Notes: generated from the letters alone by a model not told the origin. DNA of 45,495 nucleotides from Reclinomonas americana ATCC 50394 (GCA_048213135.1 PS015141.1:1-45495); one strand, 5' to 3'; shown: positions 1,669 to 45,495, numbered from the stretch's first letter. A program made the numbers and translations.

Positions 1669-1698
1669 GAAACGAAGCCCGATGGACGGCGTTATGAT

Positions 1699-1772
1699 AG
1701 CCGCACGGGGGACTCGAACCCCCAACCCTCAGATTAAGAGTCTGATGCTCTACCGAATTGAGCTAGTGCGGC
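1699..1772 (-). tRNA. tRNA-Lys: tRNA-Lys (anticodon CTT), intronless
   Basis: Reverse complement folds as GCCGCAC/GTGCGGC acceptor stem, GCTC/GAGC D arm, TCAGA-CTCTTAA-TCTGA anticodon arm, GGGGG-TTCGAGT-CCCCC T arm. Confidence 0.97.
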
Positions 1773-2013
1773 TTCGTTCGAAGGAGTGGTTGAATGATTG
1801 GGAGGCGCAGATGGATAAGGGGGAAGGGGAGGGGAAAAGCAAGGGAAACAGAAGGCTTGCGATGGGTGAGAGTGCGGGGGCGACAGACCACAGCGCCAGC
1901 AAGTGTAATTCATGGAAATTCTTGCTGCTCTTGGTGACGAGGGTTTTTCCCGACTCGGATCATTGTCATGGCTTCTTTGTTTTGTTGCTGATCGTCGCGA
2001 AAGCGCGTCAAGA

Positions 2014-32852: not shown

Positions 32853-33447
32853 CTCTCGCCTCCGTGCATCTCTTTCATTCATTTCAGTCACTCTCACTTT
32901 CGCTTGTTCTCACTGTGCTCACTCGTTCGCTCACTTACTTACGCTCTCCCACCTCTTCTCCCTCCCTCTCCCTTGACCCTCCCTCTCCACCTACTGCACA
33001 GCGCAAGACGACATGACGCAACACCCCTACTCATCGCGCTTCATCGACGTGTTGACGAACCTGTCGCAAGGCAAAGTGCCGAGCGACGTGCGCGTGGTGG
33101 ACGACAAGCCAAAGAATCCACACCAGCAGCCGTCGCGATCCAAGTTGACGCGCCGACCGAATCCGTGGGAGAAGAAGAAGCAGCAGCAGCCTGCATCGCA
33201 AAAGCAGGAGCCGGAGAGCACGGATGAAGTGGAATCGCTGGCCGCTCTCGGCGAGGCATCGACGCCGATGGCAGTGGACTCGGACGACACGACGCCGTTG
33301 GCGGGTGAAGATGATGGCGAGCAGACACCGCCGCCAGCCAAGTCGGTGCTTTCGTTTGAGGATATCGACAGCGCGGCATCGAATTCGGTGACGGCGGCGC
33401 TGCTGGTGGACGCGGAGCAGGGTGCAAATGGTGGTAAAAATGAATGA
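24715..33447 (+). CDS. Large PEX39-like peroxin (~20 exons, 5' end unresolved): coiled coil, PEX7-binding-like segment, PEX39-type helical domain and KPWE-type domain
   Basis: Exon 27790-27915 gives DDPKLKESKLMSFFAKLSTGEFQLEGRD. Exons 30781-30891, 30960-31057 and 31228- give AFLRFESYNFGADEKYVTGLQKI...LRLLQIKYFVRHVQPMDLDEYQTWR. Last exon 33002-33447 gives PYSSRFIDVLTNLSQGKVPSDVRVVDDKPKNPHQQPSRSKLTRRPNPWEKK. The exons join in frame, with one ambiguous junction near 25780-25850. Confidence 0.72.
26405..27060. repeat. Intronic 15-18 bp minisatellite (TCGCTGTGTCGCTCA)
   Basis: Directly visible tandem array interrupted by a gap. Confidence 0.92.
29310..30700. repeat. Intronic CT/CGCT and 16-mer (CTCGTTCTCGTTCTCT) arrays spanning a gap
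   Basis: Directly visible on both sides of the N run. Confidence 0.85.
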
Positions 33448-38370: not shown

Positions 38371-41300
38371 ATGGGTGCGGTGGCCAGTCGCGGTGAGCAT
38401 GTAGTGGATGTGGGCTCTCATGCCACTGTCGTCGAGGCCAATGGCGACTGGATGCTGAGCGAATCGGAGGGCGATGCCTCGTCGATCGCCAGTGCGGCGA
38501 TTGAGCAACCACAGCAGAGGAAGAAGAAGAAGAAGAAGAGAAAGTCGACGCGTCTGCAGGAGCATGAGTGTGCGGCGGTGGGGCGTGCCGACTGTGACAT
38601 GTATCACGAGGAGGATGGAGTGGGGTCGTCGCGGGTGGAGGTGGTGGGTGGCGCTGGCTGGGAGCACGAGTCGACGGATATATGGACGCGGGCGCTGGCG
38701 GAGTTGATTGCGTTGGAGCAGGAGGGGCCGCCGGAAGTGTGTCGCTTTAATGTGAGTGGGAAGGGGAGGAGATGAGGGAAGGAATGAGGGAAGAGATGAG
38801 GGAAAGAATGGGGGAAGGGATGAGGGAAGGAAGGGAGAGGGACGTGCTCCTCTGCGTCGCTGTGCTCCTCGCTTGTCGCTATGCTCTTGTCATAGCTATG
38901 CTCCTTGCGTCGCTGCGCTCCTTGCGTCGCTGCGCTCCTTGTCGTCGCTGTGCTCCTCCTTTGTCGCTGTGCTCCTCCTTTGTCGCTGTGCCCCACCTTT
39001 GTCGCTGTGCTCCACCTTTGTCGCTGTGCTCCACCTTTGTCGCTGTGCTCCTCCTTTGTCACTGTTCTCCTTATTGCTGCACTCCTTGTCGTCGCTGTGC
39101 TCCTTGTCGTCGCAGTGCTCCTTGTCGTCGCTGTGCTCCTTGTCGTCGCAGTGCTCCATGTCCTCGCAGTGCTCCTTGTCGTCGCTGTGCTCCTTGTCGT
39201 CGCTGTGCTCCTCTGCGTCGCTGTGCTCCTCTGCGTCGCTGTGCTCCTCTGCGTCGCTGTGCTCCTCTGCGTCGCTGTGCTCCTCTGCGTCGCTGTGCTC
39301 CTCTGCGTCGCTGTGCTCCTCTGCGTCGCTGTGCTCCTCTGCGTCGCTGTGCTCCTCTGCGTCGCTGTGCTCCTCTGNNNNNNNNNNNNNNNNNNNNNNN
39401 NNNNNNNNNNNNNNNNNNNNNNNNNNNNNNNNNNNNNNNNNNNNNNNNNNNNNNNNNNNNNNNNNNNNNNNNNNNNNNNNNNNNNNNNNNNNNNNNNNNN
39501 NNNNNNNNNNNNNNNNNNNNNNNNNNNNNNNNNNNNNNNNNNNNNNNNNNNNNNNNNNNNNNNNNNNNNNNNNNNNNNNNNNNNNNNNNNNNNNNNNNNN
39601 NNNNNNNNNNNNNNNNNNNNNNNNNNNNNNNNNNNNNNNNNNNNNNNNNNNNNNNNNNNNNNNNNNNNNNNNNNNNNNNNNNNNNNNNNNNNNNNNNNNN
39701 NNNNNNNNNNNNNNNNNNNNNNNNNNNNNNNNNNNNNNNNNNNNNNNNNNNNNNNNNNNNNNNNNNNNNNNNNNNNNNNNNNNNNNNNNNNNNNNNNNNN
39801 NNNNNNNNNNNNNNNNNNNNNNNNNNNNNNNNNNNNNNNNNNNNNNNNNNNNNNNNNNNNNNNNNNNNNNNNNNNNNNNNNNNNNNNNNNNNNNNNNNNN
39901 NNNNNNNNNNNNNNNNNNNNCGTCGCTGTGCTCCTCCTGTCGCTGTTCTCCTTGCGTCGCTGTGCTTTTTGTCGTCGCAGTGCTCCTCTCCGTCGCTGTG
40001 CTCCTTGTTGTCGCTGTGCTCCTTGTCGCTGTGCTTCTTGTCGCTGTGCTCCTTGCGTCGCTGTGCTTTTTGTCGTCGCAGTGCTCCTCTCCGTCGCTGT
40101 GCTCCTTGTTGTCGCTGTGCTCCTTGTCGCTGTGCTTCTTGTCGCTGTGCTCCTTGTCGCTGTGCTCCTTGTCGCTGTGCTTCTTGTCGCTGTGCTCCTT
40201 GCGTCGCTGTGCTCCTTGCGTCGCTGTGCTCCTTGCCTCGCTGTGCTCCTTGCGTCGCTGTGCTCCTTGCGTCGCTGTGCTCCTGTGCGTCGCTGTGTTC
40301 CTCCTACGTCGCTGTGCTCCTCCTGCGTCGCTGTGCTCCTTGTTGCTGTGCTCCTTGCGTCGCTGTGCTCCTTCCCTTCGATGTGCTCCTGCCGTCGCTG
40401 TGCTCCTTGTGTCGCTTGTTGCTCTTTCGCCCCCTTCTAGCTGTTCTTATCCTCACCGTTAGAGTTCCCGCAGGTGGTCATTGCCGGCGACAGTGGCGTC
40501 GGCAAGTCGGCGTTTATTCGCGCCGCTCTCGGTCACCAATTTGTGTCCCGCCACACGCACACTGCTGGCGTGGCCTTGCACATGATGCAGTATCGCAGTG
40601 AGGATGGGCGGCGCATTCAAGTGCAGGTTTGCAACGCAAATGTCTGATAAGCAAGTTGCGTTGACTTACTCTGCGGCGCAGTTGATTGAGCGCTCTGGCG
40701 ATCCGCGGTACCAGTGTATGACTGAGGAATATGTGCGAGCGGCTGATGCAATGATTGTGCTAATCGACTCGTCGACATTCTCCTTTGAGGCGCCTGCAGA
40801 GTCTTCGTATGGACGGTCGAAACAAGTTACGTCTCTGCGGGCGTCACTATTTATTTCTTGATTCTAATCTCTGCTTTAGTACTTTGCCAGTGCCGACGAG
40901 TATCACCCGCAAGGTGACGACGATGAGTTTGTGCGAGTGTTGCTGGGCACAAAGGTGCTGTTTGTCACCCCTGTCATTTTCACTTGCTGAATCTCACACC
41001 ATGTACAGGCCGACCTGGTGCGCGCGGAAGCCGCCATTGGTCGCCCCGGAGGAGTACCGTCGTTCCTCGCCGTCGAGGCATCGCTCAATGTCGATCGAAC
41101 CACCGGCTTGCGATACACGGCGGTGTCGGCCAAGGTACTCCCTTGCTCTTCCTCACTCATCACAACTCTCTCCACTCTCTCACCCCCCCGCAGACACACC
41201 CCGCAAGCATTCGCGACATTGTGAAGACGGTGGTGTTGCGCATTCAGCAGCGACAGGCCGAGGTGGAGCAGTGGTTTCCGGAGATGGCGTACTTTTCGCC

Positions 41301-44300
41301 GCTGTCGCTGCCGACGCTGACGCAGCACATTTGTGGCGGATGCACGCAGCAGGGTGGCAGTGTGGGGTTGTTGGGGGGTGCGCTGTCGCCGCGGTCGGTG
41401 CCGTATGCGTTTTTGTCGGCGGAGGAGGCGAGGGAGTGGAGGTTGCATGATCCGAATGTGTCGGGGTTGGATAGGAGGGGGAATCGGTTGCCGGATCCAG
41501 AGAGGGTGAGGAGGTGAGTGGGAAAAGGGAAAGGGGGAATAGGGGGAAGGGGGGAATGAGGGAAAGGGGGGAAGGGGGAAGGGGGAAGGGGGGAGGGAAA
41601 GAGGGAAGGGGCGGGGGAGGGGGAAGGTGGAAGAGGAGGTTAGCGGGGAAGGCGGAGAAGGGGGAGGAAACGGAGGAGAGAACGAAGTACAGAACGGAAG
41701 AGTGAGTGGGACGGAGTAGGGAACGGAGGAGGGAATGGAGGAGGGAATGGAGGAGGGAATGGAGGAGGGAATGGAGGAGGGAATGGAGGAGGGAATGGAG
41801 GAGGGAATGGAGGAAGAGAGGGAGAAGGCATAGAAAATAGGTGATAGTCAAGGGAAAGTGACGTAAACGAGAGTGAGGGAAGATGGATTGAGAGAGTAGA
41901 GGAAGAAATGAGTGAGAATGAATGACTGAGCGCCGAAAGAGTGAGTATGCGAGTTTACCATAGATTTTGTGAACGTCGACAGTGAGAGGGTGGAGGGCAG
42001 TGAGTGTGTGGGCTTGCTATTGAATGGATGTGTGAGAGGCTGACTGTGGTGAGAAGAAGAATGAAATGAGGCTGCTCGAGTAAGTGGACGAGTGTATGCA
42101 TGTGAATGATTTGAGAGAAGGTGTGGATGTGTGAGAAAAAGCGCCCGAGTACAACAGATTGGCAATATGAAGTAATGAGGGAAAGCAAGCCGTGAACTGA
42201 GGTGCTGTAATGGTGCATATAAAGAGTGAGGAAACTGACAGACATGGTCATGAAGAAGAATAGTTCGGGCAGATAGTGAGTCAGTTCGCTGTTGTGTTTT
42301 TTGTCTCTCTTATCGCTGTCGCTCTATCGCTGTCGCTCTTGTCGCCGTCACTTTTGTCGCTGTCACTCTTGTCGCTGTCGCTCTCGTGTGGCTGTCGCTC
42401 GTGTCGCTGTCTCGCTCGTGTCGCTGTCTCGCTCGTGTCGCTGTCGCTCTCGTCGCTGTCGCTCTCGTCGCTGTCGCTCTCGTCGCTGCCGCTCTCGTCG
42501 CTGCCGCTCTCGTCGCTGTCGCTTTCGTCGCTTTCGCTCTCGTCGCTTTCGCTCTCGTCGCTGTCGCTCTCGTCGCTGTCGCTCTCGTCGCTGTCGCTCT
42601 TGTTGCCGTCGCTCTTGTCTGTCGCTCTTATCGCTGTCGCTGTGCTCCTTGTCGCTGTGCTCCTTGTCGCTGTGCTCCTTGTCGCTGTGCTCCTTGTCGC
42701 TGTGCTCCTTGTCGCTGTGCTCCTTGTCGCTGTGCTCCATGTCGCTGTGCTCCTTGTCGCTGTGCTCCATGTCGCTGTGCTCCTTGTCGCTGTGCTCCTT
42801 GTCGCTGTGCTCCATGTCGCTGTGCTCCATGTCGCTGTGCTCCTTGTCGCCGTGCTCCTTGTCGCCGTGCTCCTTGTCGCCGTGCTCCTTGTCATTATCG
42901 CTCTTGTTGCTGTCGCTCACATTGACTTGCTGTGCATTGCCTATCTCTTTCTCTCTCCGTGTCTCGCCCCTTTCGCATTTCGCATCGCAGGGTGTATCGG
43001 AGGCTCGTCCGCCAGTTCAACCACAAGGAAGCCGCGGCTGGCGTCCATGTTGCGCCCGCCGGATACGCTCCAGAGACCGCGCCGTCGGTGGAGGAGTGGT
43101 CGGTGTTGGGTAGCCAGCCAGACGAAGTCAGCATGATCAGTGTGGAGATGGAGGGAGTGGGCGCTGGCGCACCGTGGGAGCAACATGCGGAGTACATGGA
43201 TGTGGTGAGTGGGCTTGGGAAGAAGTTGGTGGTATCTTGGCACTCAATCTCTTGTGGAGCAGGTCGACGTGAATGCCAACGACTCATGGCAGGATGACCC
43301 TGCAAACCAAGATGCGTTCTCGTATGGCGAGGCGGCGAGCAGCAGACGGCATTCTGTGACGCAGACGGTATGAAAGCAACAAGAGCAGGAACTGTGTTGA
43401 TTTGCAGTTCATCGCGCAACGCTTACAGCCCGGCGACTTTGTGACGCCGCGATTCGAGAGACGACAGAGTGTCGCGGTTGCGTTATTAGCTGGTGGTGCA
43501 TTGTCTCTTACGTTAGAACTAACTTTCCTTGACGCGCAGAGTGGGCGAGATGGGTGGACACCAGGGCGTGAGCGACGGAAGAGTATTACCGAGGTGAGCA
43601 CAGCACTTTAGTGTCACTGAAGAGAACGCTCAAGGAGCGCACTCGGTGTGCAGTGCATCCTCTCCGCAGAATTTGCACTCTCACCCTCATGCTGCGTGAT
43701 TACTCATCTACTGTTTGACTGTCGCGCAAGCACACATCGCCTGTACACGCAACAAGGTTGCATAGCAAGTGAGAGAGATTATTTGTGAGGAATAGGAGGG
43801 ATTATGTTGGAAAGATAGAGAAAATGTGTTGGTGTCGTTTGCGACACGTCTGGGAGTCGCACCGCTTGTGGGAATGAGCGGAAGACAGTTTGAAACAGGG
43901 AGTGCAGGTGTGCTGGTGTCATGTGCAGTAAGTCTGCGAGGGGCACCTTGGTGTAGAGGAAGGCATAGCGGACAATCTTTTGATGAATCCTGACATATCT
44001 GGACTTGATGCTCACAAACTTGCACAACAGAGCGGTGGGCCGTGGCCAGATTTCGAGCGGCGTCGCAGCATTGGCAGGGTGCGGTGCCCTTTACTCCTTT
44101 CACTCTGCTCTTGTGACCTCACGATCTGCGCAGCTCGGCGGCCATGAACGCCGGCAGAGCGTGACACAAGTTGCGACTGCACACCGCGCCGACTGAGATG
44201 CTTGCGTGCTCATTCCTGACTTGACACATAGCTCGGCGATGAAGACTGGTCGCTGCCGCCTGACACCACAGAGCGCCGCCGCAGTATTGTAGCAGTTGCG

Positions 44301-45290
44301 TTATCAACGGACTGGTACTTTGGAAGAGACTCAGATGCTGTCTCAACTGAAGAGAGACCACTGGTAGAACGTGCACTTGCTCGGCGCTGTCACTATTTCT
44401 CATTTTCTGACGCGAGAGCTCTGGTAGAACACGCACTTGCACGGCGCTGTCACTTTTCCTCATTGTCTGATGATAGAGCTTTGGTGAACGCGCACTTGCT
44501 CGGCGTTGTCACTGGTTTCATTTTCTAACGAGAGAGCTCTGATTCAACGACTTGCTCGGCGCTGTCACCAATTCTCATTCTGACGAGCAAGCTGTGGTAG
44601 ATACCGCGCTTGCTCGGCGTTGTCACTTTTCCTTATCGTCTGATGAGAGAGCGCTGGTAGAACGTATACTTGCTCGGCGTTGTCACTATTTCCCGTTTTT
44701 CGACGATAGAGCTGTGGTAGAACGACGCACAGTCGCCCTTTCCCCATTTCGAGGATGTCCTTAAGACGACCCACGTCTATTCTTTCCTGTTACAGTCGCT
44801 TTCTTCGTTCCGTTCCTTCTTGTCACTTCTGTTGTCGTTGTGCACACAGTGTGTACACTCGATTCGATTGCTTTTTTTGGTTCCTCTTGCAGTCACTCGC
44901 ATCAGTGCAAGCGTCTCTCATCACGGAGTGTTGTCGTTTCCTCTTGTTGGTCACATAATTTTTGCCGCGCTCAGGATGACGCCAGCATGGCCTCCACTGC
45001 CTTTGGACGACGCAAGAGTCTGAACATGGTCCGCTACTCTCTTGTTGTCGCCCCTTTCCCCTGTCAAGCTCCACCTAACCTTGCTGCTGCAGGAGGAGCT
45101 GCTGGCCGCGATTGCCGAGAGACGCGATCGCAAGCGGCAGATTGCCAATTTTCTGCGCACCGCCGGTTACAACACGGGCGACTTGGGGGAGCCGGTGATG
45201 CACGACTTCACTTCCAGTTCGTCGTCCAGTGACTCGAATGTGCCGGAGGCGGAGCCCAATAGTGCAAGTGACAATGATGATTCAGCGCAG
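38371..45290 (+). CDS. Atypical Rab/Ras-superfamily GTPase with N- and C-terminal extensions, 3' incomplete; exons 38371-38751, 40474-40626, 40682-40825, 40880-40954, 41009-41134, 41194-41513, 42991-43204, 43263/43293-43367, 43408-43476, 43540-43593, 44031-44078, 44134-44169, 44232-44294, 44975-45028, 45093-45290
   Basis: G1 FN/VVIAGDSGVGKS, G2 HTAG, G3-equivalent VQ/LIERSGDPRY...EEYVRAADAMIVLID, G4 VLLGTK/ADL, G5 YTAVSAK. All phases are compatible. Confidence 0.85.
38845..40420. repeat. Intronic 15-21 bp minisatellite (GTCGCTGTGCTCCT core)
   Basis: Directly visible array with internal gap. Confidence 0.92.
42310..42920. repeat. Intronic 15-mer arrays (TCGTCGCTGTCGCTC then GTCGCTGTGCTCCTT)
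   Basis: Directly visible; same core as the 38.9-40.4 kb array. Confidence 0.92.
44350..44725. repeat. Intronic ~58 bp degenerate minisatellite, ~6 units
   Basis: Unit approx. GAGAGCTCTGGTAGAACGCGCACTTGCTCGGCGCTGTCACTTTTCCTCATTGTCTGAT. Confidence 0.85.
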
Positions 45291-45367
45291 GTTGGTTTTG
45301 ATGGGGAAGGGTGGATTGTTGTTCTTGTTGCGAAGGTCGATCTTCGCCATGCGGATAGTCCCGCCTT

Positions 45368-45399
<32 letters not shown>

Positions 45400-45419
45400 C
45401 CTCTCTCTCTCTGCCCTCA

Positions 45420-45477
<58 letters not shown>

Positions 45478-45495
45478 CTCTCTCTCTCTACTCTA

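Follow-up and report, generated by a model that had tools for sequence, protein, structure and literature searches.

The window considered here, by which the whole analysed stretch of 45,495 bases is meant, is a draft eukaryotic scaffold of Reclinomonas americana ATCC 50394 (GCA_048213135.1, PS015141.1:1-45495) with nine runs of N, many simple repeats as well as spliced genes. On its plus strand it carries a candidate gene for a divergent GTPase of the Ras superfamily, and the subject of this analysis is the tail of this gene, in which seven consecutive small segments, read as exons e8-e14, each end in one Arg-Arg-x-Ser-hydrophobic (RRxS-hydrophobic) motif. The gene model, which was built by script after reading positions 41000-45495, comprises 15 exons and runs from an ATG at 38371 (MGAVASR...) to 45290, giving a 680-residue open frame. 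Its exons are listed below, with lengths in nucleotides (nt).

Exon 1, 38371..38751, plus strand: MGAVASR... start with RKKKKKKRK inside; ends with ...CRFN, where the G domain begins.
Exon 2, 40474..40626, plus strand: P-loop GDSGVGKS and switch I.
Exon 3, 40682..40825, plus strand: G3 region IERSGDP (40682-40702), where relatives read WDTAGQE.
Exon 4, 40880..40954, plus strand: ends with ...LLGTK, which supplies the first part of G4.
Exon 5, 41009..41134, plus strand: starts with ADL, by which G4 is completed as TKAD, and ends with SAK (G5).
Exon 6, 41194..41513, plus strand: post-G-domain exon of 106 full codons and 2 nt, without known family or homologue.
Exon 7, 42991..43204, plus strand: linker, preceded by a phase 2 intron.
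Exon 8 (e8), 43263-43367, plus strand: 105 nt, ...DSWQDDP...SSRRHSVTQT.
Exon 9 (e9), 43408-43476, plus strand: 69 nt, ...GDFVTPRFERRQSVA, ending with FERRQSVA.
Exon 10 (e10), 43540-43593, plus strand: 54 nt, SGRDGWTPGRERRKSITE, ending with RERRKSITE; donor GTGAGC.
Exon 11 (e11), 44031-44078, plus strand: 48 nt, SGGPWPDFERRRSIGR, ending with FERRRSIGR.
Exon 12 (e12), 44134-44169, plus strand: 36 nt, LGGHERRQSVTQ.
Exon 13 (e13), 44232-44294, plus strand: 63 nt, LGDEDWSLPPDTTERRRSIVA, ending with TERRRSIVA; donor context GTTGCGTTAT common to e9.
Exon 14 (e14), 44975-45028, plus strand: 54 nt, DDASMASTAFGRRKSLNM, ending with FGRRKSLNM.
Exon 15 (e15), 45093..45290, plus strand: 198 nt, EELLAAIAERRDRKRQIANFL..., without a stop and directly followed by the donor-like GTTGGT.

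All seven RRxS peptides that a preliminary description of this DNA had placed in the tail were found in phase 0 and just before a donor. The lengths of e8-e14 are all divisible by three, a CAG or TAG stands directly before each of these exons and a GT directly behind it, and all introns flanking them are in phase 0. The motif cores read, from e8 to e14, RRHSV, RRQSV, RRKSI, RRRSI, RRQSV, RRRSI and RRKSL, which confirms the proposed RRxS-hydrophobic consensus for seven of seven exons, and the distance from the serine to the donor is 4, 2, 3, 3, 3, 3 and 3 residues. A patch of the form [D/G]-[W/F]-x(0-3)-P (DSWQDDP, GDFVTP, DGWTP, GPWPD and EDWSLPP) lies upstream of the motif in five of the seven exons, and Glu occupies position -4 in five of the seven modules. 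A six-frame translation of the window contains 23 matches to RR.S[VIL], seven of which lie on the plus strand within the 1.77-kb tail stretch, and windows of the same length elsewhere in the sequence contain ≤2 matches each. First-order Markov simulation of the tail stretch, repeated 5000 times, gave 0.40 matches on average and 5 at most, and seven were never reached. Further or degenerate RRxS exons were sought in the 437-nt and the 680-nt intron of the tail, and none of the 25 and 26 symmetric AG..GT candidates, respectively, was module-like. Under a looser micro-exon limit of 51 nt only e11 and e12 would pass. The label of micro-exons, under which the segments had been introduced, does not suit lengths of 36-105 nt, as none of the exons falls under the ≤30 nt given as the definition in the available parts of two papers (PMC7821500; PMC8042270).

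The assignment of the gene to the GTPases starts from the open reading frame (ORF) holding exon 2, which matched the Pfam families Ras (PF00071; 8.4e-06, 25.9 bits at a cut-off of 21.6) and Roc (PF08477; 4.7e-06, 27.3 bits at a cut-off of 27). A phmmer search with exon 2 against 1.84 billion representatives yielded seven matches at E ≤0.001 with identities of 33-40%, comprising six remote Rab/Ran-like proteins and one repetitive protein (P0005). The spliced model protein was compared locally with the proteins returned by phmmer, and the alignments of its G domain with Rab-like proteins pass the junctions e1/e2 and e2/e3 without a gap, with best-domain scores of 34.8 bits against P0002 and 31.1 bits against P0004. 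The G motifs were aligned with MAFFT. The P-loop pattern GxxxxGK[ST] of G1 is present as GDSGVGKS and aligns with the P-loops of P0002-P0004, G4 is rebuilt over the e4/e5 junction (GTK/ADL, compared with GNKADL or GNKCDL), and the SAK of G5 at the end of exon 5 aligns with the SAK of Rab-like proteins; intron 5 (59 nt, donor GTACTC) starts directly after it. The G3 motif departs from DxxG(Q), as ERSGD is found where relatives read DTAGQ or DIAGQ, which retains the Gly but puts Glu in place of the Asp and Asp in place of the catalytic Gln. Judged by these alignments, the gene is an atypical member of the Ras-superfamily fold, and nucleotide binding or GTP hydrolysis of a G domain with ERSGD may be altered. 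At the N-terminus, within exon 1 (38371-38550), MGAVAS is followed by RKKKKKKRK. MGAVAS fits the N-myristoylation pattern MGxxxS/T, and the N-terminus suggests that the protein could be anchored to the membrane at this end rather than via a C-terminal prenyl group.

Due to the gap-free alignments and the rebuilt G4 motif, the junctions e1/e2, e2/e3 and e4/e5 can be regarded as supported by homology. Three homology-supported junctions are located at introns of 54-55 nt with the loose donors GTTTGC (e2/e3, 55 nt), GTTACG and GTGCTG, and the short G-domain introns altogether measure 55, 54, 54 and 59 nt, the last of them carrying GTACTC as donor. The short introns of the tail (58, 40, 63, 55, 62 and 64 nt) have the donors GTATGA, GTTGCG (three times), GTGCGG and GTCCGC, and CTNAY-like branch motifs can be read by eye 7-20 nt before the AG in G-domain and tail introns. 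In these features the short tail introns resemble the homology-checked introns of the G domain and would form one class with them, and the homology support for the G-domain junctions is therefore relevant to the tail introns as well. Over the whole gene model, 14 of 14 introns are GT..AG introns with 12 CAG and two TAG acceptors, and their lengths are bimodal: ten have 40-64 nt, and four, which are filled with repeats, have 437-1722 nt. The long introns of the tail are those of 437 and 680 nt. Phase 0 was found for 13 of the 14 introns, the sole exception being the phase 2 intron before exon 7, and this share is well above the roughly one-half that is usual in eukaryotes. Symmetry is accordingly also a property of the G-domain exons e2-e5 (153, 144, 75 and 126 nt). 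At the donor of e15, and also at the end of the window, the reading frame has not closed, and the C-terminus, where members of the Rab, Ras and Rho subfamilies carry their prenylation box, lies beyond the window. As e15 contains no stop and is followed by the donor-like GTTGGT, the gene probably continues past the window. Of the downstream exons it is e15 that codon usage marks most strongly, with frame 0 scoring 0.448 bits per codon and the other frames -0.71 and -0.54.

From the sequence it appears most likely that the tail segments are joined by splicing, and we consider it likely that all seven of them are translated exons of the GTPase gene. Splice geometry, synonymous variation, a contrast in composition and the stops met on read-through are the reasons to regard them as real exons. 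Among the 21 Arg, Arg and Ser codons of the motifs, 13 of 63 sites differ from the consensus and 13 of these 13 differences are synonymous, the Arg codons being AGA, CGA, CGG, CGC and CGT and the Ser codons TCT, AGT and AGC. Under a star-phylogeny null the joint probability of this all-synonymous pattern is 5e-8. Outside the 18-nt motif block the ungapped DNA identity of the copies is 0.15-0.49, which corresponds to background. As changes at the Arg, Arg and Ser codons are synonymous only and the identity of the flanks is at background level, it appears that the motif was held while the remainder drifted, this conservation being measured among the seven copies within one gene. The view that the rest of each exon has diverged does not hold throughout, as the W/F-P patch and the Glu at -4 are each kept in five of seven exons.

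The composition of the proposed exons differs from that of the introns between them. The T fraction is 0.08-0.19 in the tail exons and 0.23-0.37 in the tail introns without any overlap (Mann-Whitney p = 0.002), and after removal of the motif codons the exons still show 0.11-0.22 compared with 0.23-0.37 for the introns (Mann-Whitney p = 0.002). The G + C content (GC) is 57-69% in the tail exons and 42-58% in the tail introns, and the same contrast between exons and introns is present in the homology-checked part of the gene. Reading on through the donor leads to a stop after 1 codon for e8, 5 for e10, 22 for e11, 8 for e12, 77 for e13 and 67 for e14, with only e9 remaining open; as this concerns six of the seven exons, seven sites could be brought into one protein only via splicing. 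By codon log-odds the proposed frame is the best one for the tail (0.008, compared with -0.29 and -0.42), and each tail intron scores lower in that frame.

The core shared by the seven exons, R-R-x-S-hydrophobic, is the classical consensus of basophilic kinases of the PKA type, but it does not single out PKA, since it also fits PKG and Aurora-type kinases, and a Glu at -4 lies outside the PKA consensus. A comparable overlap is described for yeast, where RRxS/T contexts are common to PKA, Ypk1 and Sch9 according to the accessible part of the source (PMC7124472). We see a slightly better than even chance that the seven motifs are basophilic-kinase sites. As overall best explanation of the array, to which a probability of about 0.5 can be given, we propose spliced exons which would supply phospho-acceptor modules to the tail of the GTPase. 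Since the Glu at -4 and the W/F-P patch go with the motif, the repeated unit would be larger than a bare kinase site, and the module may include a docking element.

In such a protein, the tail would be part of a long C-terminal extension, probably without order, on a divergent GTPase of the Ras superfamily whose N-terminus is polybasic and looks myristoylated. Each small exon would contribute one [D/G]-[W/F]-x-P ... E-R-R-x-S-[V/I/L] module, with the invariant R-R-x-S-hydrophobic core as predicted phospho-acceptor for a basophilic kinase of the PKA, PKG or AGC class or of a similar one. The 143-residue tail stretch, residues 472-614 of the model, contains 23 Lys and Arg compared with 21 Asp and Glu (net charge about +2), and its motif serines are spaced 12-25 residues apart. 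Seven phosphates would turn this near-neutral tail strongly negative and could thereby act as a graded charge or docking switch, changing the contacts of the tail with the membrane, the G domain or a partner such as 14-3-3. A switch of this kind on a membrane-associated GTPase is suggested by the charge of the tail, the RKKKKKKRK patch and the myristoylation-like start taken together.

Several observations weigh against the explanation by spliced phospho-acceptor exons and have to be set beside its rivals. With the best of three frames taken for each, 18.65% of 2000 randomly drawn windows of 429 nt reached the codon score of the tail, for which the training set comprised 471 codons only, and the GC values at the three codon positions (0.64/0.57/0.65 in the tail, 0.65/0.47/0.72 in e1-e7) resemble those of coding sequence only weakly. 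The probability obtained for the synonymous pattern is conditioned on motif-bearing copies, which introduces an ascertainment effect, and its null assumes a star phylogeny. No orthologue was found in word-index protein searches with e2 (352 candidates), e6 (615) and e15 (219), none of them significant, or in the exhaustive phmmer search with e2 only against the 1.84 billion representatives, and metagenome scans with e6 (596 pattern matches) and e3 (556) confirmed none of the matches as homologue. No Pfam match at or above the curated cut-off was obtained for the four minus-strand ORFs over the region, for e1, e6 and e15, for the two read-through ORFs of a 60-nt repeat inside intron 13 or for the read-through ORF of e9, intron and e10. 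The missing orthologues and a codon-usage test that is not significant on its own would fit an array that does not code, be it a repeat in decay, a splicing enhancer or similar element acting at the nucleotide level, or chance. Yet a noncoding origin of this kind is very improbable, as none of the 5000 simulations arrives at seven motifs, the variation is synonymous, including a switch between TCT and AGY for Ser with no common bases at the first two positions, and the proposed boundaries separate the composition completely. Other points against the proposed explanation concern the extent of the transcript. The intron between e8 and e9 has 40 nt, which is unusually short for this gene and below every homology-checked intron (54-59 nt), and the acceptor near 43668 with an in-frame TGA, already pointed out in the preliminary description as a possible earlier end, is indeed present and in phase with e10:

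Candidate alternative terminal exon, 43670..43699, plus strand: ctctccgcag/AAT, coding for NLHSHPHAA, then TGA (43697-43699).

The pyrimidine tract of this acceptor is better than that of most acceptors of the gene, and its use after e10 would remove a 76-nt intron and end the protein as a short isoform with three sites. The main product could thus be an early-ending one, with NLHSHPHAA-stop or, on retention of the 40-nt intron, with ...QTV-stop, and e11-e14 would then belong to a minor isoform or be relics, to which it fits that the 437-nt and 680-nt introns are without further motif-bearing exons. Against this stands that e11-e14, unlike a relic, keep their motif by synonymous codons (CGG CGT..AGC; CGC CGG..AGC; CGC CGC..AGT; CGA CGC..AGT), that they show an exon-type composition like the other exons, and that e15 with the strongest coding signal follows downstream. 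An early end as the main outcome therefore appears unlikely; the conservation of e11-e14 at the amino-acid level indicates that the long form is, or was, made, and short and long forms could coexist.

A further rival leaves the splicing untouched and concerns what the module is for. The Glu at -4 and the [D/G]-[W/F]-x(0-3)-P patch, with five of seven exons each, are kept beyond what a basophilic-kinase consensus needs or explains, and the module might primarily serve docking or sorting, either as an arginine-based retention-type signal or as a partner-binding E-R-R-x-S-hydrophobic element combined with an adaptor-type D-W/F-x-P patch, with phosphorylation being secondary or absent. In some channels a di-arginine signal beside a phosphoserine works as a COPI/14-3-3 switch, and adaptor appendages have DPW/DPF repeats as ligands. 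However, a Ser that never varies and is followed at +1 by a hydrophobic residue is a hallmark of phospho-acceptors, and the W/F patches differ from exact DPW/DPF, which leaves a docking function in first place with a small chance. A last alternative, contained in the original proposal of a phospho-rheostat, is that regulated skipping of individual exons, which leaves the frame intact, sets how many sites a protein carries. Any subset of e8-e14 could be dropped in frame, since all of them are phase 0-0 exons, and most tail donors are far from GTRAGT. Retention is also possible for intron 9 between e9 and e10 (63 nt, 43477-43539), which is in frame and stop-free and would insert a hydrophobic stretch of 21 residues (VALLAGGALSLTLELTFLDAQ). 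But the symmetry is gene-wide, with 13 of 14 introns in phase 0, and includes e2-e5, whose loss would destroy the fold, and the introns whose removal the G domain requires have weak donors as well. Neither symmetry nor weak donors therefore mark the tail exons as alternative, and regulated skipping as the source of variation is rather doubtful. We are similarly reserved towards the wider scheme of an exon-modular phospho-rheostat, in which the sites on a membrane-anchored and probably hydrolysis-impaired GTPase would be set by exon inclusion and, over evolution, by gain and loss of exon-plus-intron units; from the sequence it is rather improbable.

For the origin of the phospho-acceptor modules, exon duplication had been put forward, and this part of the proposal is weakly supported. 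It is backed by the shared protein module and by DNA patches common to e9/e13 and e11/e13, but most pairs showed no significant similarity. When flank alignments were compared with 300 shuffles, e9/e13 and e11/e13 exceeded 300 of 300, e12/e13 gave a fraction of 0.057 and 16 further exon pairs were not significant; the scores of e8/e9 and e11/e12 are artefacts of physically overlapping flanks. Moreover, e9 and e13 have the donor context GTTGCGTTAT in common, and e12 and e13 both start with CTCGGCG..ATGAA. Together with the shared module, these two resemblances can be taken to point to a unit of exon and intron that was duplicated in tandem long ago. The array most likely goes back to such an event, with a short intron as part of the unit, and would now be mostly constitutive, although the duplication as such is weakly supported, either because it is old or because the evidence for it is thin. 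A different repeat is found inside the 680-nt intron 13:

60-nt tandem repeat, 44347..44730, plus strand: 6.5 copies, 72% matches, score 372.

Its unit contains CTCGGCG, the heptamer that opens e12 and e13, and in one frame it is open for the 77 codons that follow e13. The repeat may be a remnant of the duplicated unit.

Runs of small phase 0 exons that arose by tandem exon duplication and encode one peptide unit each are familiar from the 54-nt exons of collagen genes and the PEVK exons of titin, for which the number of included exons varies among isoforms. These units are structural (Gly-X-Y and elastic PEVK, respectively), whereas the exons considered here have 36-105 nt, carry putative kinase sites and have nearly lost their DNA similarity. 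Rab-type GTPases with N-terminal lipidation and short C-termini are represented by plant ARA6/RabF1 and Plasmodium Rab5b; these resemble the present protein in their MG... start and in a C-terminus that is freed for other functions, the lipidation of the latter being a guess at the level of a motif. The R domain of CFTR is encoded largely by one large exon. It belongs to an ATP-binding cassette (ABC) channel and not to a GTPase, and its sites lie outside any repeated module. In likeness to what is proposed for the tail described here, it is disordered, with many R-R/K-x-S sites, and its graded phosphorylation sets the activity; as far as the available part of the source goes, many PKA consensus sites are present within about 200 residues (PMC8240754). 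Among the GTPases, the small G protein Rad offers the closest functional parallel: its C-terminal domain is polybasic, and phosphorylation at Ser272 and Ser300 within it is reported to lower the positive charge and to release Rad from the membrane and from CaV-beta (PMC10904049). As is proposed for the present protein, Rad combines a Ras-superfamily G domain and non-canonical G motifs with extensions that contain several basophilic-kinase serines (PMC10904049). Its four sites are split between N- and C-terminal extensions, compared with seven in succession here, and are not known to follow a scheme of one exon per site, and its polybasic patch is C-terminal and not N-terminal as found here. 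The likeness to RGK proteins is a functional analogy only, as the best matches of e2 are Rab/Ran-like at 33-40% identity. Mutually exclusive exons, described in a further study as adjacent duplicates with sequence homology and a common phase (PMC9741552), differ in that they substitute for each other, whereas joint inclusion is expected for e8-e14 and no hint of exclusion was seen.

Among the literature matches listed for small-GTPase extensions, tandem exon duplication and microexons, no description of an array with one kinase site per small exon was found. The design is nevertheless a variation on multisite phospho-regulated tails and tandem small-exon arrays and does not constitute a new category. 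If the explanation by spliced phospho-acceptor exons is true, the tail would be an unusually clean natural multisite phosphorylation region in which every site has its own frame-neutral exon. The number of sites would then be genetically adjustable exon by exon, which would allow probing how graded phosphorylation is converted into output, and tandem exon duplication would be shown to build signalling valency. If a rheostat based on exon inclusion is true, splicing would directly set the gain of a pathway driven by cyclic nucleotides or by another basophilic kinase. With an early termination or without splicing the finding shrinks to a curious cluster of motifs. The gene, an orphan encoding an atypical GTPase with ERSGD at G3 and a myristoylation-like start, would be of further interest as it would escape annotation based on ORFs, no tail exon being longer than 35 codons.

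Two candidate features of the gene were discarded. An AKAP-like helix in e15 was dropped as the spacing of its hydrophobic pairs, judged by eye, is unfit, and an RRFSL just upstream of the start codon was counted as background, a stop being located between it and the nearest upstream acceptor. The two long introns at 38752-40473 and 41514-42990 look paralogous. Both start with GTGAGTGGGAA, which has only these two matches in the whole window, and both have a purine-rich 5′ part of the GGGAAG type. The 3′ part of both contains a 15-nt minisatellite (GTCGCTGTGCTCCTT) with 60 matches at ≤1 mismatch compared with 0 expected, all of them on the plus strand and confined to these two introns. This pairing suggests intron copying within the GTPase gene or an introner-like element.

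Apart from the GTPase gene, two features of the window could be assigned:

tRNA-Lys (CTT), 1698-1773, minus strand: Rfam 70.8 bits, also found by ARAGORN.
ORF with a PEX14-like KPWE domain, 32977-33444, plus strand: PF17733, 2.2e-08, 34.5 bits at a cut-off of 27.

The KPWE domain is the only Pfam domain above its curated cut-off among 10 other ORFs of the window. The nearest Atlas clusters to this ORF are eukaryotic KPWE proteins with scores ≤0.86, and the ORF is probably part of another gene, located upstream of the one for the GTPase.

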